NCBI GenBank assembly: GCA_050949045.1
Contig: JBMNEZ010000001.1
Coordinates: 1-64,000, forward strand
DNA: 64,000 nt
Source: Candidatus Izemoplasmatales bacterium
GTDB taxonomy: Bacteria; Bacillota_I; Bacilli_A; Izemoplasmatales; Hujiaoplasmataceae
Direction: 5' to 3'
Shown in pieces: positions 15,101 through 32,699 of this stretch (positions are counted from its first letter, which is position 1; each line of letters starts with the position of its first letter). A program made the translations under genes and the position numbers. A model generated the notes under the pieces. The model had not been told where the DNA came from. It saw only the letters and a program-made list of their open reading frames with translations, and did not search any database.

Positions 15101-15175
15101 AGGGGTGTGGTGTCAACGGTAGCACGACAGTCTCCAAAACTGTTTGAACGGGTTCAAATCCTGTCACCCCTGCCA
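15101..15175 (+). tRNA. tRNA-Trp (CCA)
   Basis: agggg acceptor stem, acagt-ctCCAaa-actgt anticodon arm, GGTTCAAATC, ends cccctgCCA. Confidence 0.96.
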
Positions 15176-15345
15176 TAAAAATGTTTAATTAGTAAACTAA
15201 ATATTTGAATGAATCGCCTAACAAGGCGATTTTTTCATAAATGGAAAGTCCATCTAGGTTATAGAAATGTTTCCTGGACGGACTTTTTAATACGGGCGGT
15301 GTTTTTTAATTTTTCACCCCAAAGGTTAGAAAATTTAATTTAAAA
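15171..15345 (+). repeat. Module B copy 1 (begins with tRNA 3' end TGCCA)
   Basis: tgccataaaaatgtttaattagtaaa...aatcgcctaacaaggcgattttttcataaa...aagtccatctaggttata..tgtttcctggacggacttt. Confidence 0.9.
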
Positions 15346-15407
15346 TATATATATTGAGTTGTCCAAAAATTGTGGACAACTGGATATAAATATGATATAA
15401 TCATTAT

Positions 15408-16262
15408 ATGAAAAAACATTCAATTAGATATTTTAATAATAAAGAAGTAAGAGCGATTTGGGATAATGAGAAATCGATGTGGTGGTATTCAGCAATTGAT
15501 TTAATTGATATTTTAGTTGAACCAAAATCTCCAAGGAGATATTGGAATAATACTAAAGTTAGAAATCCTGAGTTGTCTCCTTTTTGTGGACAACAGAAAT
15601 TATATGCTGAAGATGGGAAAAAATATAATTCTGAAGTTATTAACGAAGAGGGAATAAAACTTCTAATAACAATAATCCCCTCTAAATATCGAAAAGAAAT
15701 TCAAAATTGGCTTAAAGGTTTACTAGACCCTATTGATGAACAAAGCAAAAAGAAAGCTTATGATTTATTTAAAACTAATCTAATAAAAAAAGATGAAATC
15801 GGAAAGACAATATCTTTACAAAAAATTCACGCTTATTTATTTGAAGGTTTATATTCTTTTGCTGGAAAAATAAGATCCAAAACGATTTCAAAGGGTGGAT
15901 TTATGTTTGCTAATGGTGATTTTTTACCCGAAATTTTAAAAGGTATTGATAAGATGCCTGATAAAACATTTAAAGAAATTGTTGATAAATACATTGAAAT
16001 GAATATTGCTCATCCATTCATGGAAGGGAATGGTAGAGCAACACGAATTTGGTTAGATTTTCTTCTTAAAGATAGAATTAGTAAATGCGTCGATTGGTCG
16101 AAAATTGAAAAGGAAGCATATTTATCAGCAATGAAACAGAGCCCGTATAATTCAAAACCTATTTTTGAGTTATTGCAAAATGCTCTAACTGAAGATATCG
16201 ATAACCGCGAAGTTTTCCTTAAAGGTATTGATTACTCATATTATTATGAGGAAGAGGAGTAA
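15408..16262 (+). CDS. Fic family protein adenylyltransferase with N-terminal Bro-N-like domain
   Basis: Canonical HPFMEGNGRATR Fic motif; N-terminal FNNKEVRAIWD..WWYSAIDLI..PRRYW. Confidence 0.9.
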   Translation: MKKHSIRYFNNKEVRAIWDNEKSMWWYSAIDLIDILVEPKSPRRYWNNTKVRNPELSPFCGQQKLYAEDGKKYNSEVINEEGIKLLITIIPSKYRKEIQNWLKGLLDPIDEQSKKKAYDLFKTNLIKKDEIGKTISLQKIHAYLFEGLYSFAGKIRSKTISKGGFMFANGDFLPEILKGIDKMPDKTFKEIVDKYIEMNIAHPFMEGNGRATRIWLDFLLKDRISKCVDWSKIEKEAYLSAMKQSPYNSKPIFELLQNALTEDIDNREVFLKGIDYSYYYEEEE

Positions 16263-16303
16263 TTATAATATCAATATGATTCTATGAAAAGCAATACATA
16301 TTT

Positions 16304-16381
16304 TAATATGGGAAAGGTAAAATGAGACCAAAGGAATATTTAGAAAATACAACGGGTGACTCTGCGTTATCATTTTGCTAA
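16304..16381 (+). pseudogene. 5' remnant (19 codons) of the GNAT gene found intact at 21694
   Basis: MRPKEYLENTTGDSALSFC* vs MRAKEYLKNPTGASALSFW; RBS also conserved. Confidence 0.85.
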
Positions 16382-16410
16382 TGTATAATTAATTATAAGA
16401 AGGTGATAAC

Positions 16411-17016
16411 ATGGAAAAATTTCATTTTGAAATACCATCATTAGGAAGAAAAAATGAAATCATTGAATATCTAGATGAATTTGTAAAGTATGGTTCTGAT
16501 ATTAATGGCAGTGGTGGTTTAGATAAAATTTATGAGGGCTATACTTTTGAAGAAGCTTTAGATAGATGTTTAAAAATGGAAGATGAAGAATATGCAAAAA
16601 GAGTTGGAAGAAGCCAAGCAAAGGCATTTTTATTAATTAGGGAAAGTGATGATAAAATAGTTGGAACTATAAATGTTAGATGGAATTTAAATGAAGCAAT
16701 GTTACAATTCGGGGGACATATTGGTTTTGCTGTTAGGCCATCTGAAAGAAAAAAAGGGATTAATAAAGCTAATTTATATCTGGGAATGATTGAAGCTAAA
16801 AAAGTTGGATTAGATAGAGCGAGGATAGATTGTGATGTTAAAAATCTTGGGTCTGATAAAACACTAAAGGCTCTTGGTGGTACACTTGAAAGAACAGAGG
16901 TAGATCCTTCAGATGGAACTTTAACAAATGTGTATTGGTTTAATGTTGATGAAACAATAAATAATTATAAAAATATTTATGGACAATTTATTTCAATTTC
17001 TAGTGGGATAAATTGA
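16411..17016 (+). CDS. GNAT family N-acetyltransferase
   Basis: GTINVR..GGHIGFAVRPSERKKG..CDVKNLGS..LGG pattern. Confidence 0.85.
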   Translation: MEKFHFEIPSLGRKNEIIEYLDEFVKYGSDINGSGGLDKIYEGYTFEEALDRCLKMEDEEYAKRVGRSQAKAFLLIRESDDKIVGTINVRWNLNEAMLQFGGHIGFAVRPSERKKGINKANLYLGMIEAKKVGLDRARIDCDVKNLGSDKTLKALGGTLERTEVDPSDGTLTNVYWFNVDETINNYKNIYGQFISISSGIN

Positions 17017-17034
17017 AATAACATAAGTGTTCAA

Positions 17035-17385
17035 TTTTCCCTCAAAATGTATGATAAAAGACTTTTTAACCAGTTTTAGACAAATACCAAAATAGTAGCA
17101 ACTTTCCCCTAAAATACCCCAAAAATACCTCAAAAGGTATTCTAGCGGTTTTTTAGTAGTTTTATGTAAATGTATGCTTTTTTGCTAAACTTTTTGTATT
17201 AAAGGTGGTGCCATAAAAATGTTTAATTAGTAAACTGAATATTTGATCAAATCACCTAAAAAGGCGATTTTTTCATAAACGGAAAGTCCAACTGGGTTAT
17301 AAAATGTTTCCTGGTTGGATTTATTTAAATACTAATATTGGTTTTTAAAATCTCGCACCAAGGGTTCGAACTCTTCAATTTAAAA
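17035..17385 (+). repeat. Module A + TGCCA (17209) + module B junction, attP-like
   Basis: gactttttaacc..caacttt..ctaaaat..caaaaggtat..ttttttagtagttttatgtaaatgtatgc..ggtgcca followed by module B. Confidence 0.9.
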
Positions 17386-17522
17386 ACACGAATACGAATT
17401 TTAATTTACTACACCAGTTTTAATTTATAAAAAATAATCGTTTATCAAGACGTATGATAAAATAAAGATAGCATGAAATAATAGAGTATTACTTATAGTT
17501 GTTAAAGGCTGGTGTAAATAAA

Positions 17523-18299
17523 ATGAATATAGATGTTTCAATAATAAATGATTATTTGAATGATGAAGTTTCGTATGAAAAACATTGGATTTTTAATAGT
17601 ATATTAGGAAATAATCAATACCTTTTTGATAAGCCTTCACATAATCTTAAAGAAAGTATATCTAGTACAATGAAAAAAGTTATTGATATTCTTAAGTCTT
17701 TTATTCCGTATAATGTTGTTTTATTTTCTAAACTGTTTCTTAACTGGAAAGAATTAAGTAAAAATGTCAATGTGATTTTAGCTGTTGGATGTCCAAAACC
17801 ATATGATGCCATGATTAGAGAACATAATGAGAAAGACTATATAATTTTAGATTTAGTTCGTCTTTTGGATTATCATGAGGATATTTCTGAGGTTATTAAA
17901 AAGTTTTTTACACACGAATTAATACACGTTTGTATTAAGGTTGATTATCCATTTAATATAAAAAACGAATCAAGTTATAAAAAGATATTAGAATATTTAG
18001 TGTTTGATGAAGGTTTTGCACATTTACTTTCATTTAAAGAAAATGTTTGTGAATTTGATTTTAGCGAGTTAATAAAAACTCATTACAATAAATCAATTAA
18101 ACAACTAAAAATAGCATTGACTGAAGAAGAATTATCAAAGCAAATTGATCATTTGAATCAGGCAAATAGTGGAATTTATTGGAATAAGTTTGCAGCTATT
18201 ACTGGGAAGTTATATTTAGCTAATAATTTAAATGATTTATTTTCAATTTATAAAGCGGGACCGAAAACAATGCTAGAAAATATTATTTTTGAAGAATAA
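17523..18299 (+). CDS. Putative Zn-dependent protease (HExxH; DUF5700-like)
   Basis: THELIH and DEGFAH motifs; ATG 17523 after ggtg. Confidence 0.6.
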   Translation: MNIDVSIINDYLNDEVSYEKHWIFNSILGNNQYLFDKPSHNLKESISSTMKKVIDILKSFIPYNVVLFSKLFLNWKELSKNVNVILAVGCPKPYDAMIREHNEKDYIILDLVRLLDYHEDISEVIKKFFTHELIHVCIKVDYPFNIKNESSYKKILEYLVFDEGFAHLLSFKENVCEFDFSELIKTHYNKSIKQLKIALTEEELSKQIDHLNQANSGIYWNKFAAITGKLYLANNLNDLFSIYKAGPKTMLENIIFEE

Positions 18300-18321
18300 T
18301 TTAATATAACAAAATATAATC

Positions 18322-18348
18322 TAACCCCGTCGATTTCGATGGGGTTTT
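18322..18348 (+). terminator. Intrinsic terminator
   Basis: aaccccgtcga-tt-tcgatggggtt followed by T run. Confidence 0.7.
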
Positions 18349-18358
18349 ATGTCATAAG

Positions 18359-18447
18359 ACGTGAAAAACACTAAACATGTTGACTATTTTTCACGTTAAT
18401 GTTAAAATATACGCGAAAAACAGTCAACAATACGACTAAATTTCGGG
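18359..18447 (+). promoter_or_regulatory. Two operator-like inverted repeats flanking a -10-like TAAAAT
   Basis: CGTGAAAAA-N18-TTTTTCACG (18360-18395) and degenerate CGCGAAAAA-N18-AATTTCGGG (18412-18447). Confidence 0.65.
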
Positions 18448-18457
18448 AGTTGGTATA

Positions 18458-19762
18458 ATGATAAAAAGAGATTTCTATTTAAATAAGCTAGTAAATAGTA
18501 AAGATAACGGAAAAGTTAAAGTGATAACTGGTTTACGAAGATGTGGTAAATCTTATCTTTTGTTTAAACTATATAAAGAATATTTGTTAAGTGAAGGTAT
18601 AAGTGAAGAACAAATTATTGCATACAGTTTAGAGGGGTATGAAAACATACACCTAAGAAATATAACTGTTTTATATGCAAGCATTAAATCAAGAATTAAA
18701 GATGATAATAAAAAATATTATCTTTTTATTGATGAAATTCAAAATGTTCATTCAATCCAAAACCCATACGTAGAATCTAAAGATATAATAACATTTGTTG
18801 ATGTTATGTTAGAATTAGTAAAATTAGATAATTTGGACATATATATTACTGGCTCAAACTCTAAAATGTTATCTAAAGATATACTTACTCAATTTAGGGG
18901 AAGAACCCATCAAATAAGATTACTACCATTATCTTTTAATGAATTATATAAACATTTTGGGGATACTCCAGAATTATTAGATAATTATATTATGTATGGT
19001 GGTATGCCGGAAGTATATACTAAATTTAATAATGCAGAATCTAAAAGGGAATATCTTAAAGATCTTTTTGAAGAAACATATATAAAAGATGTTTTAGAAA
19101 AAAATAATATCCAAAATGATAAATACGTATTAGGAATACTTCTTGATTTCATATCATCTAGTGTTGGTTCTTTAATAAGTCCTTCAAAAATTTCTAATAG
19201 ATTTTTATTTGAACAAAATATAAAAATATCTAGTGAAACAGTTAATAGATATTTAAAATTTTTTGATGACGCATTTGTATTATCAAAAGCTAATAGATAC
19301 GATATAAGTGGAGCAAGATATTATCAAACTAATAATAAGTACTATTACACCGATGTAGGGCTAAGAAATGCACGACTTAATTTTCCACAAAAAGATCAAG
19401 GTCATATCATGGAAAATATAATATATATAGATTTAATAAAAAGAGGCTATAAAGTAGATGTTGGAATAGTACGTGATAATTACAGGGTTGACGGAAAACT
19501 TACACAAAAACAACTTGAAGTTGATTTTATGGCAACGGGAGCAAATGAGCGTTACTATATACAATCCGCCCTGACTTTAGACGATTTAAAAACAATAGAA
19601 AGAGAAACAAGACCATTAAATAAAATAAAAGACAACTTTATTAAAATAGTAGTTATCAAAAATTATACTGGTTCATTTTATGATAAGGATGGAATCTTTT
19701 ATATTAATTTAAAAGATTTTCTATTAAATGAAAACTTAGCTGAAATAACTAAAAGATGGTAA
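18458..19762 (+). CDS. AAA+ superfamily ATPase (AAA_14 + DUF4143-type)
   Basis: GLRRCGKS Walker A, FIDEIQ Walker B, TGSNS, GGMP, KYYYTDVGL, EVDF..YIQ. Confidence 0.9.
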   Translation: MIKRDFYLNKLVNSKDNGKVKVITGLRRCGKSYLLFKLYKEYLLSEGISEEQIIAYSLEGYENIHLRNITVLYASIKSRIKDDNKKYYLFIDEIQNVHSIQNPYVESKDIITFVDVMLELVKLDNLDIYITGSNSKMLSKDILTQFRGRTHQIRLLPLSFNELYKHFGDTPELLDNYIMYGGMPEVYTKFNNAESKREYLKDLFEETYIKDVLEKNNIQNDKYVLGILLDFISSSVGSLISPSKISNRFLFEQNIKISSETVNRYLKFFDDAFVLSKANRYDISGARYYQTNNKYYYTDVGLRNARLNFPQKDQGHIMENIIYIDLIKRGYKVDVGIVRDNYRVDGKLTQKQLEVDFMATGANERYYIQSALTLDDLKTIERETRPLNKIKDNFIKIVVIKNYTGSFYDKDGIFYINLKDFLLNENLAEITKRW

Positions 19763-19875
19763 ACAGCATAGGTTTTAATATTTATTTGGCTTTCAAGGTT
19801 TTAAAAAAATTGTAGAAGTATGCCATATTTTTATTTGGATAATTTAATAATCTGCAAAACACGGAATAAAACTCT

Positions 19876-20067
19876 TACAAATGTTAGGAAATGATGAAAT
19901 GATAACTAAAGCTATATTAGATAGGCTACTACATTATTCATATTTATTTAATATAATTGGCCCATTATATAGGATTAAAGATAAAGTAAAACTTAATAAA
20001 TCATAATTGAATAAAAGTGGGGATTCTTATCTGCACAAAAATGGGGACATTTAACTTGACATTTATA
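19876..20067 (+). mobile_element. Internally deleted IS21-family remnant
   Basis: IstB C-terminus MITKAILDRLLHYSYLFNIIGPLYRIKDK (19899-20006); ends TACAAATGTTAGG / revcomp TATAAATGTCAAG; ACTCT duplicated at 19871-19875 and 20068-20072. Confidence 0.8.
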
Positions 20068-20144
20068 ACTCTTGAAAAATCCGGAATAAAACCTCTGAAA
20101 AACCCGGAATTGTAATTTAATTTATAAGTAATATCTATTTCAGT

Positions 20145-20228
20145 TGCCATAAAAATGTGGACGACCGAATTCATGATTCAATTAGATACTTTAATGATAA
20201 GGAAGTAAAAGAGGAGAATAAATATTAA
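20145..20228 (+). pseudogene. Collapsed remnant of a module B + fic cassette
   Basis: tgccataaaaatg, then tgtggacgac (half of the fic operator), then 33 nt matching the fic 5' end at 30/33 positions. Confidence 0.75.
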
Positions 20229-20249
20229 TCATACAAAATTGAAATAGCA

Positions 20250-20338
20250 TAGACTTTCAAGATTTCAAAAACTTGCAAAAGTTGAAAGTCTAGGGTATAA
20301 TACTTTCAAGATAACAAAATTTTTGTTTTTTTGAAAGT
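20250..20338 (+). promoter_or_regulatory. Two operator-like inverted repeats flanking TATAAT
   Basis: TAGACTTTCAA-N21-TTGAAAGTCTA, TATAAT at 20296, ACTTTCAA-N21-TTGAAAGT. Confidence 0.75.
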
Positions 20339-20349
20339 GAGGCGTAGTT

Positions 20350-21552
20350 ATGAAACTTATCGAAAGAACTTTATATTTAGATAGACTTAAAAGAGTTAGA
20401 AATACTCCTGATATTAAAATTATCACTGGTATTAGAAGATCAGGCAAGTCTGAACTTATGAGATCTTATTTAAAATACATTAAAGAAACTGAACCAGAAA
20501 CAAATATAATAGAAATTGACTATGGTAATTTAAAATATGATGATATAAAAGATTACAAAAGTCTATATTCATATGTCGAAAGCAATTATAAACCTAATAC
20601 CAAAAATGTCTTAATGATTGATGAAGTTCAACTTTGTCGTGAGTTTGAGATTGCGGTTAACAGTCTTCATAACAACAAAAAATATGATATTTATTTGACT
20701 GGATCTAATGCTTTTTTATTAAGCTCAGATTTATCTACATTATTTACTGGAAGATTTATAGAAATTCCAGTTTTTCCATTTTCATTTAAAGAATATTTAG
20801 AATATTTTGAGATAGAGGATAATTTTTCTAATCATTTAGAAAATTACTTAAAAGTGGGAGGATTTGCGGGCTCATATTTATATGAAAACAAGGAAGATTC
20901 TAATGCATATATAAAAAACGTGTATACATCTTTAATTAAAAGAGATTTAGTCGATAGATATAATATTGAAGATATTTCGTTATTAGATACGCTAACAGAA
21001 TTTTTAATGGATAACATATCCAGCCTTACAACCGCTAATAATATATCTAACATATTAAATAACAAAAAGATTAAAACAAATCATGTAACTATCGGAAATT
21101 ACATTAAATATTTATGTAATGCTTTTATGTTTTATAAAGTAAAAAGATACGATATTAAAGGGAAAAAGTATTTAGAAATAAACGACAAGTATTATTTATC
21201 CGATTTATCTTTCCGTTATTCTATATTAGGAGTTAGAAACATAGATTATGGAAGAGTTTATGAAAATGTAGTAGCAATCGAATTATTAAGGCGGGGATAC
21301 GATATATATGTAGGTAAACTTTATGAAAAAGAAATAGATTTTATGGCAATTAAAGGTAGTGAAAAAATTTATATTCAAGTATCAGACAATATAAGCAGAG
21401 AAGAAACATTAAAAAGAGAAATTGCCCCTTTAATTGCTATAAAAGATGCTTATCCTAAAATTATCTTAGCAAATACGACACACCCAATGACAATAAAAGA
21501 CGGTGTAAAAATATTTGATTTAGCTAGATGGTTAATAGATGATAAGAATTAA
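20350..21552 (+). CDS. AAA+ superfamily ATPase (AAA_14 + DUF4143-type)
   Basis: GIRRSGKS, MIDEVQ, TGSNA, KYYLSD, EIDF..YIQV. Confidence 0.9.
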   Translation: MKLIERTLYLDRLKRVRNTPDIKIITGIRRSGKSELMRSYLKYIKETEPETNIIEIDYGNLKYDDIKDYKSLYSYVESNYKPNTKNVLMIDEVQLCREFEIAVNSLHNNKKYDIYLTGSNAFLLSSDLSTLFTGRFIEIPVFPFSFKEYLEYFEIEDNFSNHLENYLKVGGFAGSYLYENKEDSNAYIKNVYTSLIKRDLVDRYNIEDISLLDTLTEFLMDNISSLTTANNISNILNNKKIKTNHVTIGNYIKYLCNAFMFYKVKRYDIKGKKYLEINDKYYLSDLSFRYSILGVRNIDYGRVYENVVAIELLRRGYDIYVGKLYEKEIDFMAIKGSEKIYIQVSDNISREETLKREIAPLIAIKDAYPKIILANTTHPMTIKDGVKIFDLARWLIDDKN

Positions 21553-21693
21553 ATAATTATGTCATAAAAAAGATGAATTAGAATTTGTGGTAGGTTAAAA
21601 TGAATAAAACAGAAGACTTAAGACTTTATTGTTAATGTTAATATGAAACTGTGCCACTATTAAACAATATATTTTTAAGATGGGAAAGGTGAA

Positions 21694-22317
21694 ATGAGAG
21701 CAAAAGAATATTTAAAAAATCCAACGGGAGCCTCTGCGTTATCATTTTGGAAAACATGCCACTTTAATGCTCCTACTCATATTAAAGTTATTAATGAAAA
21801 TGAATTTAATCCAAATTTACTTGAAACACATACTGATGAAGTTTATTTTAAGTTGGTTCATTATCTCGAAAATATAGAAAAACAGTTTAAATCTGATAAA
21901 TTTATATTTGTTAAGGCTAGTACGGAAGAATTTGTTAATCATATAAATTCCTGCTATGAGAAAGAGAGATTAACAGCTGATGAACTAGAATCTTATAAAA
22001 ATAGACCGGTATACGATGAAGATCTATGGATTTGTTTATATGATAATGTAAATCATGTTATAGCTGCCACTGGTATAGCAGAGTTTGATAGAGAGATTAA
22101 AGAAGGCTACCTAGATTGGATTCAAGTTTCCAAGGAATATAGAGGACAAGGATTAGATAAGATTATTGTTTATGAACTGCTGAAAAGACTTAAAAGAAAG
22201 GCTAACTTTGTAACTGTTTCAGGAAGAGTAAATAATAAAACAAATCCAGAGAAATTATATGAAAGTTGTGGCTTCGAGAATAAAGTTTTGTGTCATATAC
22301 TTACGGAAAAAAAGTAA
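21694..22317 (+). CDS. GNAT family N-acetyltransferase
   Basis: LDWIQVSKEYRGQGL, LYESCGF. Confidence 0.85.
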   Translation: MRAKEYLKNPTGASALSFWKTCHFNAPTHIKVINENEFNPNLLETHTDEVYFKLVHYLENIEKQFKSDKFIFVKASTEEFVNHINSCYEKERLTADELESYKNRPVYDEDLWICLYDNVNHVIAATGIAEFDREIKEGYLDWIQVSKEYRGQGLDKIIVYELLKRLKRKANFVTVSGRVNNKTNPEKLYESCGFENKVLCHILTEKK

Positions 22318-22361
22318 TAGAAGATATGCTAGAAAGTAATGATGAATAATATTTAGGTTTA

Positions 22362-22712
22362 ATTTTCCTCTATTTTTTCTTAAAAGATATGCCGAAAGAC
22401 TTTTTAACCGGTTTATGAAAGCGTCTTTGTCGCCGACAACTTTCTTCTAAAATGCTCAAGAATAATCCAAAAGGTATGTTAATGGATTTTTTAGTAGTTT
22501 TATGTAAATGTATGCTTTTTCTCTAAATCTTTTGTGTTAAAAGAGGTGCCATAAAAATATTTAATTAGTAAAATCTAGTTGATTGATAAAATCGCCTAAC
22601 AAGGCGTTTTTTTCATAAAATGAAGTCCATCTAGGTTATAAAAATGTTTCTTAGATGGACTTTTTTAAAAATTGATATTGGTTTTTGATTTCCCATACCA
22701 AGGGTTCGAACC
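22362..22712 (+). repeat. Module A + TGCCA (22547) + module B junction, attP-like
   Basis: Collinear with 17035-17385. Confidence 0.9.
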
Positions 22713-23013
22713 GTTTATATAATCATAGCGATTCCAATGGTGCTGTTAAAGAAATGTTAGGGAGACATTTAGAAGGACATAGGGAGACGCGAAGAAAATT
22801 AGAGGAGATGTTTAAAAAGGCTGAAGACGACAAAATGTCATTTCTTGCGATAGAAATGTCGTTTAAAAAATAAAGTGGCCCTTTAATTTATAAGGAATTG
22901 TAATAATATTATTTTTTATTAAATAGATTTAGATACTAGAAATAGGGTGGACATTTTTGATTTAGAAAAAGCCGAGACAAGTAGAGACTTTATATATACA
23001 TAATTTAATAATC

Positions 23014-23100
23014 TGCAAAACACGGAATAAAACTCTTGAAAAATCCGGAATGAAATCTCTGAAAAATCCGGAATAAAACTCTTGAAAAATCTGGAATGAA
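23014..23100 (+). repeat. Four tandem 23-bp direct repeats in the promoter of the third AAA ATPase
   Basis: Consensus tgaaaaatccggaataaaactct, period 23; TATAAT just downstream. Confidence 0.9.
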
Positions 23101-23130
23101 TGTATATAATAAATGTGAGGAGGGAACAAT

Positions 23131-24390
23131 ATGATGATGCCTATAAATTATAAAAAAAGATTGATTGAAGAACAGATTAAAGAAAAGATGAAATATAGTG
23201 GTGGAGTACTTATTGAGGGAGCAAAATGGGTTGGCAAATCAACTACTGCCAGTATCTTTGCAAAAACAATAGTGAGCCTCCAACATCCTCGCATTAAGAA
23301 AGAATATCAAGCTTATGCTGCTGTTTTAGATGATAAAATTTTAGAGGGCGAAAAACCAATTCTATACGACGAATGGCAAGACATTCCTGAAATTTGGGAT
23401 TTTATTCGTATTGATGTTGATAAAAACAATTATAAAGGGGCATATTTGTTAACTGGTTCTACTAGGAAACAAAACATAGAAACATCTCATACAGGTACAG
23501 GAAGAATTAACTCCGTTTATATGAGACCAATGAGTTTATATGAAAGTGGTGAATCTAACGGACTTGTTTCTTTGAAAAAACTTTTTAAAAATTCAAAATC
23601 ATTTGTTGAAAAGTCTACAGTCACTATTGATGATATTGCCTATTTGATTTGTCGTGGCGGTTGGCCTGGAAGTTTGGACTTGGATAAAAAATCACAATTG
23701 CAAATCCCAAAAGATCTTTTAAATTCGATTATTACTAGAGATTCTAAGGAAATTGATGGAATATCGAAAGATATAAAAAAAATGCGTAAAATTGTTCAAA
23801 GTTATGCAAGAAATGTTTCAACATTAGCCTCAAACTCAACAATCTATAAAGATCAAAACTATAATGAAATAGTAACTGAGAAAACATTTAATTCGTATAT
23901 GAATTCATTAGAGAGATTATTTATTGTTGAGGATGTTGAGGCGTGGTCTCCTAGTGTTAGAAGTGCTAGCAGAATTAGAAAAGGAAATAAAAGACAATTC
24001 GTTGATCCAAGCATTGCTGTTGCTGCATTAAGTTTAACACCAGATAAACTTTTGAAAGATTTTGAAACCTTCGGATTTTTATTTGAATCAATTGTTACAA
24101 GAGACCTTAGGGTGTGTGTTGAAAATATTGGAGGCAATGTTTATTATTATAATGATTCATCAGGACTTGAAGTTGACTTGATCATTGAATTAGAAGATGG
24201 TTCTTGGGCTGGTGTTGAGGTAAAATTAGGTAGTAATGAATTAGATAAAGCTAGTGCTAATTTGTTAAAACTAGCTGATATATCCGAAGTCAAACCATCA
24301 TTTCTGATGGTATTAACTAATACTGAGATAGCATATCGAAGACCAGAAGATGGGATATATGTTGTACCTCTTGGTTGTTTAGGTCCTTAA
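23131..24390 (+). CDS. AAA+ superfamily ATPase (DUF4143-type)
   Basis: GAKWVGKST, YDEWQ, LTGS, GGWP, DPSIA, EVDL..VEVKLG. Confidence 0.9.
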   Translation: MMMPINYKKRLIEEQIKEKMKYSGGVLIEGAKWVGKSTTASIFAKTIVSLQHPRIKKEYQAYAAVLDDKILEGEKPILYDEWQDIPEIWDFIRIDVDKNNYKGAYLLTGSTRKQNIETSHTGTGRINSVYMRPMSLYESGESNGLVSLKKLFKNSKSFVEKSTVTIDDIAYLICRGGWPGSLDLDKKSQLQIPKDLLNSIITRDSKEIDGISKDIKKMRKIVQSYARNVSTLASNSTIYKDQNYNEIVTEKTFNSYMNSLERLFIVEDVEAWSPSVRSASRIRKGNKRQFVDPSIAVAALSLTPDKLLKDFETFGFLFESIVTRDLRVCVENIGGNVYYYNDSSGLEVDLIIELEDGSWAGVEVKLGSNELDKASANLLKLADISEVKPSFLMVLTNTEIAYRRPEDGIYVVPLGCLGP

Positions 24391-24659
24391 TTTTTATAAA
24401 AGAATTTGAAGATGTTTTTGTGCTAATAGCAGAAATTGAATATAAAGATTTACACAATGAAATAAGAAATCAAATGTCTGTACTTATACTATAGATTAGG
24501 ACTAAAACTTGGTACTATGAAAAAGGGAATTTTTCTTATGAAACACAGTGGAAAATTGAAATTTTAGATTGTCTAACTTCTATTGTCTGAACGATTATAA
24601 CCTAGGGGGTTGCACGATTGAACGATTACTTCCGAAATTGTATCAATTAGGACAGCGCT

Positions 24660-24830
24660 TGCCATAAAAATATTTAATTAGTAAAATCTAATTGATTGAT
24701 AAAATCGCAAGGCGATTTTTTCATAAAAAGAAGTCCACCTAGGTTACAAAAAAGTTTCCCGGATGGACTTTTTAATATTGATATTGGTTTTTAATTTCTC
24801 GCACCAAGGGTTTGAACTTCTCATTTTAAA
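24660..24830 (+). repeat. Module B copy 4 (not preceded by module A)
   Basis: tgccataaaaatatttaattagtaaaatcta..aatcgcaaggcgattttttcataaaa..aagtccacctagg..ggatggacttt..gcaccaagggtttgaac. Confidence 0.9.
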
Positions 24831-25013
24831 ATATGAATAATAATTTCAAAATAATATTTGTAGAATACTAACACTAACTATTTGATAAAAAAAAGGGGAA
24901 CTCTCGTTTTATTCCATAAAAACATAAATTTTTTATCAAATACATGATAAAATTATTTTAAAGATCAATCTAATTATTATCTAAGAGTTTATATTTAAGA
25001 TGGGAATGATAAA

Positions 25014-26972
25014 ATGAGAGCAAAAGAAAAAAACACAGATATTTGGGTGTATGAATTATTAAAAGAAGCAGGATTAAAATTAGATCCTCAAGGATCTACA
25101 ATAAAAGAAATAGATAGAGCACTTAAATCGGCTTCTAAGCATGGAACTGGAAAGCCTGGTTTTCCTGAATATACTGGGGTTGTAAAAGATTTTTTAATTG
25201 TCATTGAAAATAAAGCATCTGTTTCAAATCATGTTAAAAGAACGAGTGAAGATTTAATTTGTCAAGAAACTGATTCAATAGTTAATTATGCTGTAAATGG
25301 AGCTTTGTTTTATGGAAAACATTTAGCTAAAAATACATCGTATAAAAAAATAATTGCTATTGGTGTTTCAGGAAATGAAAAGAAGCACAGAATTAGCCCT
25401 GTTTTTGTTAATGAACGAGAAGATTATTATGAGTTACCGGAATTAGAAACATTTATATATTTCAATGAACAAAACATTGATGAGTATTATATCAAAGAAA
25501 TTTTAAAAGAAAACACAGATTTTGAAAAAGAGACTCAAGAAATATTAGCAGATGCTAAAGTGTTACACGAAGATTTAAGAAATTATGGTGCGATACAAGA
25601 CAAAGACAAGCCCCTAATAGTTTCAGGAATATTATTAGCATTAAGAGAGATTGAGCATGGCAATTTTAGTATTGAGTCATTGACTGGTGATACTAGAGTA
25701 ACTGATGGACAAAAAATTTATAATGCAATACAAGCCAATTTATCAAGAGCAAATGTTTCTCCAGAAGTTAAAAAAGATAAATTGTTAAATCAGTTTTCTG
25801 TTATAAAAGATACTACAAAAATTAATTTAATTGAACCAAATTTAGGTAAAACACCGAATAGACATTTTACAGAGTTTCTATATAATAGCATATATAAATC
25901 TATTAGATTTCATCAAAATGGAGAAGATTATTTAGGTAGATTTTATGGTGAATTTATGTCTTATTCAGGTGGAGATGGACAGGCTCTAGGGATTATACTA
26001 ACACCAAGACATATCACAGAATTATTCACGGAATTGTTAGATTTAAAACCTGAAGATAAAGTATTAGACCCTTGTTGTGGAACTGGTGGTTTTTTAATCG
26101 CTGCAATGCATAATATGATGCAAAAAACAGAAGATCATCTAAAAAAAGAAAGTATTAGAAAAAACCAATTATTTGGGCTTGAACTACAACCATATATGTT
26201 TACTATTGCAACCACTAATATGATTTTAAGAGGAGATGGCAAAAGCAATCTTGAACAAGATGATTTTTTAAAACAAAATCCTAAAAAGTTGCAATTAAAA
26301 GGTTGTACAGTAAGAATGATGAACCCACCATATTCACAAGGTTCTAAAACTAATCCTGATTTATACGAGATATCTTTTACTGAACATTTACTTGATTCTA
26401 TAGTTGAAGGAGGTAAAGTTGCAATTATAGTTCCTCAATCTACTATGACAGGTAAAACCAAATATGAGCAAAGCGTTAAAGCTAATATTCTAAAAAAACA
26501 TACTTTAGAAGGTGTTATTACTCTAAATAAAAATACATTCTACGGGGTTGGAGTTAATCCTTGTATCGCGGTTTTCACTATAGGTGTTCCTCACCATGAA
26601 GAAAAGACTTGTAAGTTTATTAATTTTGAAGATGATGGTTATGTTGTTCAAAAACATATTGGGTTAGTAGAAACTCCAAGTGCCAAGGATAAAAAACAAC
26701 ATTTACTGAATGTATGGTTTAATCGTGTTGAATCTGATACTAGTTTTTGTGTTGAAACAACCATAGAATATGATGATGAATGGTTGCACTCTTTTTATTA
26801 TTTCAATGATGAGATTCCATCTAATGAAGATTTTCAAAATACCATAGCAGATTATATTACCTTTGAGGTTAATATGATTACTCACGGTAGAGGTTATTTA
26901 TTTGGTATTGATAATGAGTTAGAACAAATAGAAAAACCATCAAAAGATGTAACGGGTGATTCAAATGATTGA
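25014..26972 (+). CDS. Fused restriction endonuclease/N6-adenine methyltransferase (BcgIA-like, Type IIB/IIG)
   Basis: N-terminal GFPE..VIENK nuclease-like motif; LTPRHI, DPCCGTGGF, NPPY. Confidence 0.88.
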   Translation: MRAKEKNTDIWVYELLKEAGLKLDPQGSTIKEIDRALKSASKHGTGKPGFPEYTGVVKDFLIVIENKASVSNHVKRTSEDLICQETDSIVNYAVNGALFYGKHLAKNTSYKKIIAIGVSGNEKKHRISPVFVNEREDYYELPELETFIYFNEQNIDEYYIKEILKENTDFEKETQEILADAKVLHEDLRNYGAIQDKDKPLIVSGILLALREIEHGNFSIESLTGDTRVTDGQKIYNAIQANLSRANVSPEVKKDKLLNQFSVIKDTTKINLIEPNLGKTPNRHFTEFLYNSIYKSIRFHQNGEDYLGRFYGEFMSYSGGDGQALGIILTPRHITELFTELLDLKPEDKVLDPCCGTGGFLIAAMHNMMQKTEDHLKKESIRKNQLFGLELQPYMFTIATTNMILRGDGKSNLEQDDFLKQNPKKLQLKGCTVRMMNPPYSQGSKTNPDLYEISFTEHLLDSIVEGGKVAIIVPQSTMTGKTKYEQSVKANILKKHTLEGVITLNKNTFYGVGVNPCIAVFTIGVPHHEEKTCKFINFEDDGYVVQKHIGLVETPSAKDKKQHLLNVWFNRVESDTSFCVETTIEYDDEWLHSFYYFNDEIPSNEDFQNTIADYITFEVNMITHGRGYLFGIDNELEQIEKPSKDVTGDSND

Positions 26973-28595
26973 GAAGTTGACATTGAATGATGTTAGTTGG
27001 AGTAAATTTAAAGTTAAGGATGTTTTTGAAGTAACTAACTCAAAGCCGTATCACAAGGAAATCTTAGAAGTTTCATTGCGTGGAATCCCCTATATCACTA
27101 GGACATCATTAAACAATGGATTAGATGAAATTGTTAATATGGAAGAGAACTTTGATATTAATAAAGGAAATGCTATTACTTTGGGTGCAGAAAACGCTGA
27201 CTTTTTTTATCAAGAAAAAGATTATATAACAGGAAATAAAATGTACAGAATTTCTAATAAATATATGAACAAACAAATTGGGTTGTTTTTAGTTCAAGTG
27301 TTTCGTGAAAGCATTAAAAACAGCGGTTTTGGATATGGTAAGGGTTTAACGGGGACTAGATTTAAAGAAAGAATAATTGTGTTACCTGTTGATGATAATG
27401 GTCGTCCAAATTGGGAATTTATGGAAAATTATATTAAACAAGAACAAAAAGAAATTGCCCAAAATGTAATTAATTATTACGAACAAAAAATGATTGAAAC
27501 TGGCTTTGATTTAATAGGTTTAGAAGATGTTGAATGGAAAGATTTTAAAATCAGTGATTTGTTTGAAACTTTTGAAGGATCGAATGGAGTTCAAACACCA
27601 ACTGGAAGTTACATACCTAAAGATGAATTAATTGACTCTAACATTCCAAGAATTACAGCAAAAGAAACAAACAATGGTATTGATGGATACTATTATTCTT
27701 CAAACAAAAATTTTAGAGTTTTTAAAAACTTTATTAGTGTTTCATTTATGGGGAGTGCTTTTTACCATTCTTATGAAGCATCTTTAGATATGAAGGTTCA
27801 TGCTCTTATTCCTAAAAACTTTGATTTAACAGAAAATATTGCATTATTTATTATTCAAACATTAAAAAATAATACAAAATTATTTTCTTATGGGAATCAG
27901 CTTTCAAGTACTGATTTACCACACCAGAAAATATTATTACCTATAGATTCTAACGGTAATCCACATTTAGAATATATAGATATATTCGTAAGAAAAATAA
28001 AATCAGAAAATATCGAAAAAGCACTACAATATATATATATATATATAAGCTAGCAATTAAAGCGGAACAACAATTGTCAAATTTAATGGATAAAGAGTGG
28101 AAAGAGTTTAAAATTAAAGAATTATTTGATGTTAGTGGAACGGTTACAACACATCCAACCGAACTAATATCAGATGGTAAAACGCCTCGAATTACTACAG
28201 CTGCTAGCAATAATGGTTTAGAATCTTTTTATAGAAATAAAGCAACTGAAAAAGGAGGAGTACTCACAGTTGATAGTGCAACAATTGGTTATGTAAGTTA
28301 TCAATATTCAGATTTTATAACAACAGATCATGTTGAAAAAATTAGTTTTAAAGGCGAAAGATTTATTCCAAAAACGATAGGTTTATTTCTTAAAACATGT
28401 ATTGACAAATCAAAGGGTGAAAAATTTGGTTATGGTTATAAATTTAGTCAATTTAGAATTAATAGACAAATCATAAGTTTACCTGTTGATAAAAATGGAG
28501 AACCAGACTATGCATATATGAATAAATATATCTTAATTCAACAAATAAAAGAACAATACAAAGTTATAAATTATTATTATTCTCTTATAGATTGA
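26956..28595 (+). CDS. RM specificity (S) subunit split by an (AT)9 frameshift: 2 TRDs in ORF 26956-28053, third TRD in 28074-28595
   Basis: Three repeats of W..F.i.dlF...P.IT....NNG...I.LP.D.NG.P; removing one AT unit fuses the ORFs. Confidence 0.85.
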
Positions 28596-28614
28596 CATAA
28601 ACAAAAGGGCTTGA

Positions 28615-28752
28615 TTTTCCACTATTTACCCTCAAAAGGCATCCTAAATGACTTTTTAACCAGTTTATGAAAGTGCCTTTGTTGCCGTCAACTTTCTTCT
28701 AAAATGCCCAAGAATAATCCAAAAGGTATGTTAATGGATTTTTTAGTAGTTT
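28615..28752 (+). repeat. Module A copy 3, truncated before the TGCCA core
   Basis: Near-identical to 22398-22500 up to ttttttagtagttt, then diverges. Confidence 0.88.
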
Positions 28753-29002
28753 AGCACGGTTGAGCGATTTTCTAGTATAAAATCACTTTTGAAGAGGATA
28801 TTTATACTTAATGAGTTTATTGATATCAATATCTTTCAGAATAAAATTGTCAATATTAAAGTTAAGCATATCCGCTAAAGTTGAAACGTTTAGAGTGGCA
28901 GTGCAAGTACTTTTACAAAAAAGTGTTGCTTTTACTATTTATAATTAGTAAACTGAAAATAGATATTCTGTGGAATATAAAAAATGCCTACAGGGGGAGA
29001 AT

Positions 29003-31963
29003 ATGAAAAAAAAGAAGATAATCCTTCTACTCGCGCTAGTATCGCTGCTTTTTGGTGCGTGTCAGAAGACGCCAACAAGCGATTCAAGCAAACGGTCTAC
29101 TACCAGTGAATTTACTAGTACATATTCAATTACCAGTACATATTCAAGTGAAAGACCTACGACCAGTGATCCGAGTAGCCACACAACAAGCAAAGATCCA
29201 GTAACTGGTTATAAAATTACTTGGCTTAACTGGAATGGCGCTCATTTAATGACGCATTATAATTATCCGGTCGGCGAAATGCCAGTATTCAATGATACAC
29301 CTGTTAGACCGGAAGATGATGACTATACATATGAGTTTGATGGATGGACACCTGATTTAGTACCGGTTGTTGCTGATGCAACTTATTATGCTAAGTATAT
29401 TCCACATCCTAAAACTGCATTTGTTGATCCTTATGACTTTGCTTGGGGTGAAAACGAAGAAGGTATAGTTTTAATTGGCTACTATGGGAATGCGCCTGTT
29501 ATTGAAATTCCGGCTTTAGTTGATGAAAAACCAGTTGTTGCGCTTCAAAAATGGGCATTTTTTGATAATGTGACATTAAGGGAAGTCACAATCCCTGATA
29601 GTGTTATCAATATTGGCGAAGATGCTTTCGCTTCTTGTATTAACCTACATACTGTTAATTTTGGCAATAACGTTGAATCAATTGGTTTTGATGCTTTTTC
29701 AAACTGTGTTAGCCTTGAATCGATAATATTGCCGGATAGTGTTAAAAAAATCGGTCCAGAAGCATTTTCTGAATGTCCAAACTTAGTAAATCTACATATT
29801 CCTAGTAAAGTAGAAAATGTTGATAGTTCCTTGGTGAAAAAATCATCAGTTGAAGCGGTCACGGTATATGAAAAAGGCATATATGTTGGAAACAGTGAAA
29901 ACCCGTATTTAGTCCTTATTGGTGTTGATGCATCTTTTTCTGCTGAACATCTTTCAGTCCACACTGATACAAAAATTATCGCCGACGATGCTTTTTTTGG
30001 GTCTAATCTTACTGGGGTTACCCTGGGCAAAAACGTTCATACAATTGGCGATAGTGCTTTTGCCAGATGTAGTGGTCTAACCGCGGTTGAACTGCCAAAT
30101 AGCTTGCGCCATCTTGGTATGGGAGCTTTTGAAAATTGTGACCAACTTGGAACTGTTAAATTTGGCAATCAACTTGAGACAATTGGTTCTCAAGCTTTCT
30201 ATAACTGTAAGTCTCTAACAAACATTGTTTTACCTGAAAGTCTAACTTCAATCGGCTCCTACGCCTTCTATTCTTGGCCAGACAATATTGTTTATACGGA
30301 ACACGATAATGGCCGTTATTTAGGTACGGCGACCAACAAACATTTTGCTCTAATTAAGACTAATTCAGAGTATATTACCTCAATAAGCATCCATGCTGAT
30401 ACACATATAGTCGCCGATGGAGCATTTTCAAGTTGTACAAAACTTACAGGTGTAACGATTCCTGCCGGCGTTGCGTATTTAGGAGACTCTCTCTTTTATA
30501 ATTGCTTTGCACTTACATCTCTTAGTGTAGAAAACGGCAACACCAAATACTCATCGCCAACTAATAATAAGGCAATCATGGAAACAGCGACTGATAAACT
30601 CTTATTTGGCCTAAAAGACGGCTATATCCCTGAAGGAACAAAAATCTTAGGCGATTCGTGTTTTGCCTACTTTAACCTAAAAGAAAGCGCTATTGCCATC
30701 CCAAACAGCGTTGTCGAACTAGAAGCGGGAGTTTTCTATAATTCATCGCTGCCTAGCACGTTTACAATTCCGAATAGCGTTACAAAAATTGGTAATGGAG
30801 CTTTCCAATACTGCTCAAATATGCAGTTGCTTACTCTTAGTAATCAAATTAAAATAATCAATCCTTGGACTTTCTCCGGTTGTGATGATCTAACTTCAGT
30901 TACAATTCCCGATTCAGTTACGATAATTGGCGAATATGCGTTCAACGGTTGTGATGGACTTGTTACTGTTAACTTTGGATCTAATGTTAGTCTTATTGCG
31001 GATGCCGCTTTTAGCGGTTGTGCTAAATTAGGTAATCCTCAATTAAATAATAATCTTCGTGTTATTCATGGTGGTGCTTTTAGTGGCTGTAGCTTAATTA
31101 CATCAATCGAATTTGGCGAATATTTAATTCATCTTTCTGGGTCTGCTTTTATAGAAGCACCTATAACTTCAATTTCAGTTCATGCCGATAATCAATATTT
31201 TGATTCGCGTACGGACTGTAACGCCGTTGTCAGTAAAAAGAGCAATATTCTTGTTATGGGCTGTGTAAATTCTACGATTGATCCAACTGTAGTTGGTATA
31301 GGTCCATATGCTTTCGCGAGTACGGCAATTACAAATATTACATTACCTGCAAATGTCGTCACTCTGGGAGCCGGCGCATTTAATGATTGTCGATTCTTAA
31401 CTTCAATCACAATACAAGGCGAAGTTACTGCTATCCCTGAAAATTGTTTCCTTTATTGTACTGAATTAAAAAACTTCGTGATTCCAAGTTCGGTTACCTC
31501 TTTAGGCAATAATGCCTTTGGGGATTGTCCGTTTACAACAATTGAAATACCAAGCACAGTCACCTCAATTGGCGCATATTGCTTTAGCTACTGTGAATCT
31601 CTTACAGAGATTGTAATTCCTAGTAGCGTTACCTCTCTATCCAATGGTGTTTTCTATGGCTGTAGCGCTCTAAGTAAGATTACACTGCCCGAGGAATTAA
31701 CTTCAATTGGAAATTATACTTTCTCAAACTGCTCTAATTTAAATAGTATTGTAATTCCTAGCACTGTTACTACAATTGGACAACGGGCCTTTAATTCTTG
31801 CGCAAACTTAAGTATCTTTGCGATGGCCAGCGAATTACCATCTGGCTGGGGCTCTACATGGAATCCTGCTAATTGTCCAGTTTACTGGTATAGCGAAACA
31901 CCAAACTATGATGGTAGCCATTGGCGATATGTTGAAGGTATACCAACCGTTTGGCATAATTAA
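29003..31963 (+). CDS. BspA-like leucine-rich repeat (LRR_5) surface lipoprotein
   Basis: MKKKK + hydrophobic stretch + LFGAC lipobox, Ser/Thr linker, many IPxSVTxIGxxAFxxCxxL repeats; RBS ggggag. Confidence 0.9.
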   Translation: MKKKKIILLLALVSLLFGACQKTPTSDSSKRSTTSEFTSTYSITSTYSSERPTTSDPSSHTTSKDPVTGYKITWLNWNGAHLMTHYNYPVGEMPVFNDTPVRPEDDDYTYEFDGWTPDLVPVVADATYYAKYIPHPKTAFVDPYDFAWGENEEGIVLIGYYGNAPVIEIPALVDEKPVVALQKWAFFDNVTLREVTIPDSVINIGEDAFASCINLHTVNFGNNVESIGFDAFSNCVSLESIILPDSVKKIGPEAFSECPNLVNLHIPSKVENVDSSLVKKSSVEAVTVYEKGIYVGNSENPYLVLIGVDASFSAEHLSVHTDTKIIADDAFFGSNLTGVTLGKNVHTIGDSAFARCSGLTAVELPNSLRHLGMGAFENCDQLGTVKFGNQLETIGSQAFYNCKSLTNIVLPESLTSIGSYAFYSWPDNIVYTEHDNGRYLGTATNKHFALIKTNSEYITSISIHADTHIVADGAFSSCTKLTGVTIPAGVAYLGDSLFYNCFALTSLSVENGNTKYSSPTNNKAIMETATDKLLFGLKDGYIPEGTKILGDSCFAYFNLKESAIAIPNSVVELEAGVFYNSSLPSTFTIPNSVTKIGNGAFQYCSNMQLLTLSNQIKIINPWTFSGCDDLTSVTIPDSVTIIGEYAFNGCDGLVTVNFGSNVSLIADAAFSGCAKLGNPQLNNNLRVIHGGAFSGCSLITSIEFGEYLIHLSGSAFIEAPITSISVHADNQYFDSRTDCNAVVSKKSNILVMGCVNSTIDPTVVGIGPYAFASTAITNITLPANVVTLGAGAFNDCRFLTSITIQGEVTAIPENCFLYCTELKNFVIPSSVTSLGNNAFGDCPFTTIEIPSTVTSIGAYCFSYCESLTEIVIPSSVTSLSNGVFYGCSALSKITLPEELTSIGNYTFSNCSNLNSIVIPSTVTTIGQRAFNSCANLSIFAMASELPSGWGSTWNPANCPVYWYSETPNYDGSHWRYVEGIPTVWHN

Positions 31964-32680: not shown

Positions 32681-32699
32681 ACAACTGTTTTCGGCGATA

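Follow-up and report, generated by a model that had tools for sequence, protein, structure and literature searches.

How can a tandem array of small, co-oriented gene cassettes come to lie at the 3′ end of a tRNA gene beside which no integrase is encoded? The question is raised by the tRNA-Trp gene of a Candidatus Izemoplasmatales genome (G000, a single contig of 1,356,138 bp), within the first 64,000 nt of that contig, a stretch referred to here as the window. Directly at the tRNA 3′ end begins an island of ~18 kb (15176-33147) made of six co-oriented units, at whose junctions a module A, a 26-bp core and a module B follow one another. We consider it probable that this island arose by tandem accretion of small non-autonomous integrative cassettes, carrying mostly defence cargo and moved by a recombinase supplied in trans.

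The island at the tRNA-Trp gene

The tRNA-Trp (cca) gene was located with ARAGORN at 15101-15175 on the plus strand, and the island that follows it has a GC content of 25-31% (15.5 to 28.5 kb) versus 44.3% for the genome. In nine genomes of the same genus a gene for an EF-G-like protein lies 0.25-2.7 kb after tRNA-Trp, and in the host it lies 18 kb away (33243-35315). Alignment with the closest empty site (G004) showed that the host tRNA-Trp is native up to ...CACCCC and that the first B module starts exactly at TGCCA, while homology resumes only at ~33148, 95 nt before the EF-G-like gene; the island therefore comprises 15176-33147. The 160-nt spacer that G004 has 3′ of tRNA-Trp is missing in the host. 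An earlier note on this DNA had placed the end of the array at 28752, short of a degenerate junction (28919-28960) and a BspA gene with leucine-rich repeats (LRR) that the island also includes. The A-B junction was found in none of 24 genomes of the same family and in none of 157 other genomes of the order (E ≤ 1e-8). Given this absence and its low GC content, the island is foreign in origin. Contigs of a ~98%-similar strain from another study also contain the right boundary, together with portions of units 1, 5 and 6.

The features of the island are as follows (ORF, open reading frame; AAA_14/DUF4143 genes are numbered by position):
15101-15175, plus strand: tRNA-Trp (cca); the core and B1 both open with its final 5 nt, TGCCA
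15171-15405, plus strand: B1, with the 26-bp core (15171-15196), terminator hairpin 1, hairpin 2, conserved box and inverted repeat GTTGTCCA..TGGACAAC
15408-17016, plus strand: cargo of unit 1, Bro-N + Fic adenylyltransferase (15408-16262; PADLOC PDC-S04) and GNAT (16411-17016)
17031-17213, plus strand: A1, ending AAAGGTGG followed by TGCCA
17209-17385, plus strand: B2, core at 17209-17234
17499-19762, plus strand: cargo of unit 2, a 266-aa ORF and AAA_14/DUF4143 ATPase 1 (18458-19762; PDC-S01); no A after it
19828-20110, plus strand: 23-nt repeat copies (AAAACTCTTGAAAAATCCGGAAT type), with a tandem set at 22989-23120 that lies upstream of AAA_14 ATPase 3
20116-20215, plus strand: "b-prime", a B-region tail with a mutated inverted-repeat promoter region, plus a Bro-N 5′ end that is truncated; a block colinear with metagenome contig L061 begins here
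20350-22317, plus strand: cargo of unit 3, AAA_14/DUF4143 ATPase 2 (20350-21552) and GNAT (21694-22317); the polymorphic cassette of L061
22362-22551, plus strand: A2, ending AAAAGAGG followed by TGCCA
22547-22880, plus strand: B3, long form, core at 22547-22572
23131-24390, plus strand: cargo of unit 4, AAA_14/DUF4143 ATPase 3; no A after it; colinearity with L061 stops at 24475
24660-24830, plus strand: B4, core at 24660-24685, preceded by non-A sequence
25014-28595, plus strand: cargo of unit 5, a type IIG restriction-methylase (N6 methylase, 25014-26972) and specificity ORFs (26956-28053 and 28074-28595)
28614-28752, plus strand: A3, truncated at its 3′ end
28919-28960, plus strand: degenerate junction, 76% identical to A-end + core + B start
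28970-31963, plus strand: cargo of unit 6, a BspA-type LRR surface protein
31964-33147, no strand assigned: island tail, ~1.2 kb, no ORF of at least 80 aa

All ORFs of at least 100 aa between the modules lie on the plus strand. Searches with Pfam, NCBIfam and PADLOC identified the cargo, in which PADLOC recognises PDC-S04, PDC-S01 and a type IIG restriction-modification (RM) system, in agreement with the gene content and co-orientation that the earlier note had given and with its description of integrase-less, bracketed units that bring defence and stress genes to a tRNA 3′ end. The 266-aa ORF of unit 2 has a HELIH motif and no family match. An Rfam scan gave nothing above threshold except the tRNA.

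The 26-bp core (TGCCATAAAAATRTTTAATTAGTAAA) is common to all junctions and occurs with at most one mismatch in 13 of the 18 distinct sites listed. What the earlier note had called an unusually short shared core is thus 26 bp long between junctions, and only the overlap with the tRNA gene and with the relatives' empty site is as short as 5 nt. Repeat finding, alignment and BLAST all recovered the B modules that had been proposed at 15171, 17209, 22547 and 24660; each starts with TGCCA, and they are 77-87% identical over 160-175 nt. Copies of A are 75-88% identical to each other, and both full copies end in GGTGCCA; the three that had been proposed (17035-17213, 22362-22551 and a truncated third) were mapped to 17031-17213, 22362-22551 and 28614-28752. 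Outside the island, whole-genome BLAST found copies of A and B only in a second low-GC region at 765-797 kb. Confinement to two low-GC regions argues that the repeats are not due to chance, and they are not dispersed in the genome in the manner of a miniature inverted-repeat transposable element (MITE), the alternative that had been named beforehand.

After the core, B consists of a spacer, a GC-rich terminator hairpin (CGCC..GGCG, with one compensatory variant TGCC..GGCA), a second hairpin with a T-run, and a conserved box (TCTCGTACCAAGGGTTCGAAC) that is doubled in some copies. In the B of some units only, an inverted repeat GTTGTCCA-N-TGGACAAC overlaps a promoter-like site TGGACA-17-TATAAT, as is seen in B1 (15373-15401). 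A short form of B, made of the core and one hairpin, also exists. Module A is ~190 nt long, is conserved in primary sequence and contains two AAAAGGTAT-containing repeats, between which a deletion generates a short form. Both A (~190 nt) and B (~165 nt) stay conserved around unrelated cargo. They contain no open frame longer than 63 codons, their copies differ by indels, and no ORF spans the A-B junction. RNAalifold gave weak consensus folds for nine copies of A and 14 of B (−11.6 and −6.5 kcal/mol, covariation term ~0), with 4 of 38 pairs compensatory for A and 1 of 20 for B; the sole robust hairpin is the terminator in B. A promoter scan gave counts not above those of shuffled sequence (113 vs 107.8 ± 10.5) and a terminator scan gave 9 vs 6.0 ± 2.3, so that single predicted sites are only suggestive.

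A vestige of B had been proposed at 20145 (TTGCCATAAAAATG, ~20143). Its alignment partner is the inverted-repeat promoter region that other B regions have at their 3′ end, and the truncated 5′ end of Bro-N follows. The TTGCCATAAAAATG string showed no alignment to the core with which B begins and was rejected as a vestige of it, being a promoter/operator look-alike.

Copies of the 23-nt repeat (AAAACTCTTGAAAAATCCGGAAT type) at 19828-19881, 20064-20110 and 22989-23120 sit just 5′ of AAA_14/DUF4143 genes, and the last of them overlaps the −35 element of a promoter-like site before ATPase 3. These repeats may be operators for the winged-helix part of the AAA_14/DUF4143 proteins.

Related arrays and the exchange of cassettes

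An exact scan for the start of B in species-representative genomes, metagenome contigs and IMG/VR returned nine loci in genome contigs and 11 in metagenome contigs, with extended B and/or A homology in eight of each. Eight of the nine genome loci come from metagenome-assembled genomes (MAGs) of Acholeplasmataceae, Acholeplasmatales or Bacilli, with ~29% GC. Of the 20 loci, 13 have the core overlapping by 5 nt with the 3′ end of a tRNA gene, which is tRNA-Gln(ttg), tRNA-Gln(ctg) or tRNA-Trp and in every case ends in CCTGCCA. The full frame of B, cargo, A, repeated in tandem and closed by a further B, is present in L028 (with L108), L031, L033, L061 and L070, where the cargo includes SLFN/AlbA_2 with HATPase_c_4, an APH-family kinase, AAA_14/DUF4143, R.Pab1-type nucleases, the same RM cassette as in the window, BspA-LRR and an aldo-keto reductase. 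In L031 the BspA gene likewise follows the RM cassette within the A/B frame. The AAA_14/DUF4143 genes, present in three of the six host units, recur in L028, L030, L032, L033, L060, L061, L066 and L070. Their relatives in viral contigs are distant (30-37% identity for ATPase 2), and no relatives of the Fic protein were found in viral contigs. Four matches (L029, L064, L065 and L067) concern the core only, without TGC and without a tRNA; L065 and L067 have ~45 nt of B in common, and those in L029 and L064 may be chance matches of a 20-base AT-rich pattern in collections of this size.

The units of the window are 88-93% identical to units of different genomes, located at different tRNAs and at different positions in their arrays:
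20064-21687: closest to L030, 92%
22547-24475: closest to L033, 89%
24657-27009 (RM cassette): closest to L031, 90%
18360-19812: closest to L066 and L070, 88%
20116-24475: colinear with L061, 92.9% over 4442 nt, as a two-unit block

The window's own arms are only 75-88% alike, which shows that the units are not local duplicates. In the RM cassette, 27009-27355 has no nucleotide match to L031:6138-6499; this stretch falls within the specificity gene and looks like a swapped target-recognition domain.

As the earlier note had suggested, the content and order of cassettes were compared between related arrays. They differ, and one pair displays a clean gain or loss of a single cassette at the tRNA end. 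Contigs L061 and L069 have flanks that are 98% identical on both sides, and L061 has one extra unit of 2.8 kb (AAA_14 of 400 aa, GNAT of 207 aa, and A) placed exactly between tRNA-Gln(ctg) and a B identical to the tRNA-proximal B of L069. This extra unit is the counterpart of unit 3 of the window. The new tRNA-proximal B of L061 differs from that of L069 at many positions, and the internal junction of L061 reads TGTCA while the tRNA keeps TGCCA; the exchange is thereby located inside the 26-bp core, to the right of the pentamer's third base.

This polymorphism bears on the first of the other explanations, in which the A-B junctions and the tRNA gene act as portable homology and units are shuffled by RecA-dependent exchange after DNA uptake, with only the founding event being site specific. 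The 26-bp core and arms of 165-190 nt at ~80-90% identity offer such homology, the difference between L061 and L069 can be derived by placing crossovers in the tRNA and in B, and the boundaries of the block in the window (20116 and 24475) lie at other repeats or in unique DNA. Against this stand the host tRNA-Trp, native to within 5 nt of its end, the presence of the same cassettes at three different tRNA species, and an arm divergence of 13-25%, which makes a poor substrate. Moreover, the nearest donor-type tRNA-Trp (L030) differs from that of the host just upstream of TGCCA, so that the host junction is not a crossover inside the tRNA. We therefore regard homologous shuffling as an unlikely account of the array as a whole, while homologous exchange may contribute to its rearrangements.

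Near-identical variants of the cassette with ATPase 2 were seen in the metagenomes. In runs X1, X2 and X11, contigs with 7-26 differences cover 20295-21440 and 23334-24595. The variant contigs cover ATPase 2 at a word depth of 27-268, versus 5-11 for host-identical contigs, where contig depth is not a quantitative measure; this points to near-identical variants of the cassette in other genomes of the same digesters.

The second low-GC region of the host (765000-797500, L023 and L024; 21-33% GC) also contains A modules and abuts tRNA-Gly and tRNA-Ala. A copy of A on the minus strand (765435-765605) closes an island downstream of tRNA-Gly(gcc) and ends in ...GACTCCA, the tRNA itself ending in GCTCCA; around this tRNA the assemblies of relatives are fragmented and not syntenic. 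A core with a short B lies at 769451 on the minus strand. Another A is split by an IS21 element (IstA/IstB) and is followed by GGTGCCA and 61 nt of B at 784809, and a short A abuts the 3′ end of tRNA-Ala(cgc) convergently, TGGTG being common to both. The cargo of this region comprises AbiEi/AbiEii, SLFN/AlbA_2, BspA, an SLFN-g3 helicase with a MazG-like protein, an nSTAND/NB-ARC protein, and Dcm with MTaX1, HATPase_c_3, Z1 and DUF4420. Further segments with less than 32% GC are found at 281000-287000, 396000-408000 and 485000-493000, the last of which begins right after tRNA-Gly(ccc) (484943-485016). The host tRNA-Gln(ctg) at 757560-757634 also ends in CCCTGCCA and is unoccupied (followed by AAAAAAACAACC), which makes it a free potential target.

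Recombinases and the proposed route of accretion

The precision of the junction at a native tRNA, the use of three tRNA species, the uniform arms and the clean polymorphism of L061 fit site-specific integration in trans. A complete cassette consists of the 26-bp core, arm B (two terminator hairpins, conserved box, promoter-like site), cargo, and arm A (~190 bp). A cassette or a run of cassettes would excise as a circle, in which the junction of A, core and B forms a long-armed attachment site (attP). A recombinase supplied in trans would then join this attP to a tRNA gene ending in ...CCTGCCA-3′ (tRNA-Trp or tRNA-Gln). After the first cassette, the tRNA end and the resident core would together make up the full 26-bp target, so that newer cassettes would enter beside the tRNA and older ones would be pushed outward. 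The cassette family would be at home in Acholeplasmataceae of anaerobic digesters (biogas reactors), and the host, which belongs to another order, would have received its array through site-specific integration at the tRNA-Trp of its own genome, in part at least as blocks of several cassettes.

Which enzyme could serve is constrained by the recombinase genes present. Profile searches with PF00589 and PF00239 found no tyrosine or serine recombinase in the window, in accordance with the earlier note. In the host genome, PF00589 matches genes at 90 kb and 711 kb and a fragment of 76-81 aa at 1162.7 kb, none of them near the array; these are XerD (339 bits), a XerC-like protein (324 bits) and the fragment. 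There is no match in the host genome to PF00239 (Resolvase) or to Y1 transposases. The genomes that bear arrays have two to four PF00589 genes each, none of which adjoins an array, and no PF00589 gene, relaxase or replication-gene remnant occurs within the units of any array examined. Large serine recombinases are encoded in G158, G159 and G160, unlinked to the arrays. One array (G158) holds a 223-aa resolvase-type gene on the opposite strand, a small serine recombinase that is absent from the host.

In another proposal the host pair XerC/XerD moves the cassettes, in the manner of IMEX elements or the pdif modules of Acinetobacter, with the core acting as a Xer site. An Xer-like pair constitutes the only recognisable site-specific recombinases in G000, G162 and G206, which have no further tyrosine recombinase and no Resolvase; G158 and G160 have two tyrosine recombinases each, plus serine recombinases. 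The dif-like site of the host at 634.7 kb and those of four MAGs (CCTATAATATATATTATGTAA type) are, however, clearly unlike the core. When a 28-nt dif consensus is aligned without gaps to the A-B junction, it matches at 16/28 positions at best, which lies at about the 90th percentile of random island windows, and this match is off the core; integration, too, takes place at tRNA ends and not at dif. We find the Xer proposal very improbable. In the four Acholeplasmataceae-type MAGs the canonical dif-like site CCTATAATATATATTATGTAA lies only 1.5-4 kb from the best-scoring Xer-like gene of the genome, an arrangement reminiscent of the single-recombinase XerS/XerH systems. These dif-like sites are:
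L109: G158:C10:314826
L110: G159:C5:28022
L111: G160:C80:23594
L112: G161:C1:167345

The mover could also be a non-canonical enzyme borne by the cassettes themselves, either the AAA_14 + DUF4143 ATPase-nuclease or a small serine recombinase such as that of G158. A serine recombinase needs only a 2-bp crossover and would fit the 5-nt overlap with naive sites, and the 223-aa resolvase-type gene does lie inside an array; it is nevertheless found in one array only and is absent from the host. AAA_14/DUF4143 genes occur in about half of the units, and DUF4143 is classed in the PD-(D/E)XK superfamily in the part of that classification concerned with it (PMC3424549). PADLOC, on the other hand, files these ATPases as the defence candidate PDC-S01, and the literature found has no transposase or recombinase role on record for them. 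A cassette-borne mover is accordingly highly unlikely in our assessment.

The tRNA-Gln(ttg) of G159 (L058:1625-14725, G159:C10) is followed by a 13-kb element bounded by ~45-nt imperfect repeats of the tRNA 3′ half, which encodes a Cro/CI-type helix-turn-helix (HTH) protein, a 290-aa tyrosine recombinase, a Rep_trans rolling-circle initiator and a trypsin-like protease, and which adjoins AAA_21/RloB and two large serine recombinases. Its 290-aa integrase was considered as a helper and rejected, since the element that encodes it is a classical one, which has 45-nt tRNA repeats and lacks A and B. In one metagenome contig (L060:7639-12150) the genes after an AAA_14 (419 aa) cassette are those for a Tn916-type integrase (Integrase_DNA + Phage_integrase), a sigma-70 r4 protein and an HTH protein, and an EF-G IV/C fragment of the ribosomal-protection type. 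At 1162700-1163284 (L012) the host has the remnant of a tRNA-Phe-linked element, with an 80-aa HTH ORF and a 76-aa C-terminal integrase fragment less than 600 nt from the tRNA end.

The units could themselves be what is left of once-autonomous tRNA-integrating elements (integrative and conjugative elements, ICEs; integrative and mobilizable elements, IMEs; prophages or satellites) that lost integrase and transfer genes after accretion, as in cis-mobilizable elements (CIMEs). The relevant part of PMC5704250 documents tandem accretion followed by decay as a route to integrase-less units that keep their att sites, and the account of tycheposon islands in the corresponding section of bioRxiv 10.1101/2020.12.28.424599 describes newer elements that push older ones inward, and degenerate remnants. 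In line with this, the host has a decayed integrase fragment with an HTH gene beside tRNA-Phe. No unit of the arrays examined, however, has a remnant of an integrase, relaxase, transfer or replication gene. Full-length arms are kept around unrelated cargo of one to three genes in several genomes, which is unexpected from parallel decay of independent elements, and the sole classical element seen, that of G159, has 45-nt tRNA-half repeats and no A or B. Decay of autonomous elements is thus an improbable origin for these units.

Several observations weigh against accretion by a recombinase in trans. No cognate recombinase was found in the host or in the array-bearing genomes. No circle or excision product was found in Logan contigs, which break at the A/B repeats: the joints listed have short sides of 20-42 nt, one of 91, the placeable ones match L030-, L032- and L061-type arrangements, and they neither show nor exclude circles. 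Among motifs shared by A and B, none stood out as resembling arm-type sites; there is only TTTATGAA, which is inverted and overlaps a T-run. The empty tRNA-Trp site of the host has only TGCCA in common with the core, and a tyrosine recombinase would have little to work with in a 5-nt overlap between a naive site and the core. IMG/VR gave no match to the start of B or to an A motif, and the island and the A-B junction had no match in phage or plasmid collections. The polymorphism of L061 and L069 could also reflect homologous exchange with tRNA and B as arms. Three of the six window units lack one arm (units 2 and 4 lack A, unit 3 lacks the head of B), the right end has no att, and the block shared with L061 begins and ends off the cores (20116 and 24475); illegitimate or homologous events must thus have had a part in shaping the array. 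What we infer are the circular intermediates, the nature and origin of the recombinase and the action of A and B as attP arms, as well as the mobilisation in trans that the earlier note had put forward.

With these points weighed, tandem accretion of trans-mobilised cassettes is still the probable origin of the island. We regard the array of the host as an import, taken in partly as blocks and later eroded; as the host now has no dedicated recombinase, it would be a largely frozen and partly decayed defence island. A bolder version is that the wall-less Bacilli of digesters have a dedicated integron-like capture system, in which expression-ready defence cassettes, each defined by nothing but a 26-bp core and two arms of ~170-190 bp, are stacked at CCTGCCA tRNAs and exchanged across orders, by a recombinase that is not in cis and is not a recognisable integrase, e.g., a Xer pair on a non-dif site or a new enzyme such as AAA_14-DUF4143. 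This we hold to be conceivable, if rather doubtful.

If accretion in trans is correct, bacteria that have small genomes and no cell wall would assemble defence islands from minimal cassettes of arms and cargo that cross orders without a recombinase of their own. This would add a third route to those by integrons and by ICEs or prophages in decay. The case also shows that an island called "integrase-less" can nevertheless be of precise and recent site-specific origin. The arrays offer a defined 26-bp target and an attP of ~350 bp for testing, a potential means of site-specific insertion for organisms that have few genetic tools, and a catalogue of candidate defence genes (PDC-S01, PDC-S04, type IIG RM, SLFN/AlbA_2, R.Pab1, AbiE and STAND).

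Comparison with known systems

Integrons hold small co-oriented cassettes of one to few genes without a recombinase of their own, with one proximal insertion site and shared boundaries. The earlier note had spoken of an integron-like platform, and the analogy holds in outcome, since the array too has small, co-oriented, recombinase-less cassettes with shared boundaries. It does not extend to mechanism: there is no IntI and no attI, the boundary is a 350-bp bipartite site of duplex type and not a folded attC-type hairpin (the RNAalifold folds being weak), the cassettes carry their own terminators and promoter-like site in B, and the anchor is a tRNA end.

IMEX elements (integrative mobile elements exploiting Xer) and the pdif modules of Acinetobacter are integrase-less, have short recombination sites and need host recombinases. 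The array differs from them in that its core is not dif-like and its location is a tRNA end instead of dif or a plasmid. Classical tRNA islands and prophages have an integrase gene at one end and direct repeats of tens of nt from the 3′ half of the tRNA; the array has no integrase and a repeat of 5 nt, to be compared with the 45-nt repeats and 290-aa integrase of the element in G159. Unlike MITEs, its A and B copies are not scattered, being limited to the tRNA-Trp island and the region at 765-797 kb.

The closest precedents concern tandem accretion. As far as the relevant part of PMC5704250 describes them, CIMEs of the ICESt1/ICESt3 type in Streptococcus are units without integration or transfer genes that keep their att sites, arranged in tandem at the 3′ end of a target gene with the recombinase supplied by another element, and the array is alike in these respects. 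Unlike CIMEs, it has no adjacent ICE or IME, no remnants of autonomous elements were seen in the arrays examined, the arms, at 165-190 nt, are long and remain uniform although the cargos they enclose are many and unrelated, and the overlap with the target gene is only 5 nt. Descent of the cassettes from an ICE or IME by decay is, all the same, conceivable. With the tycheposon islands of Prochlorococcus, as presented in the corresponding section of bioRxiv 10.1101/2020.12.28.424599, the array shares a place beside a tRNA gene and, presumably, growth by repeated integration at the same site, as well as adaptive or defensive cargo and degenerate units. Tycheposons, according to the same section, have partial tRNAs on their flanks and bring replication genes and a recombinase (tyrosine or other) of their own, whereas no unit here has such genes and the tRNA-derived repeat is only the 5-nt TGCCA within a 26-bp core that is otherwise not of tRNA origin.

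No account of arrays of this kind was found in full-text searches on Acholeplasma genomic islands, DUF4143 and non-autonomous integrative elements, and the part of a survey of Mollicutes ICEs that bears on them (PMC12205969) contains no mention of such arrays. The array at tRNA-Trp resembles CIME accretion, tycheposon islands and integrons, each in some of its traits, and has the defining features of none of the three.

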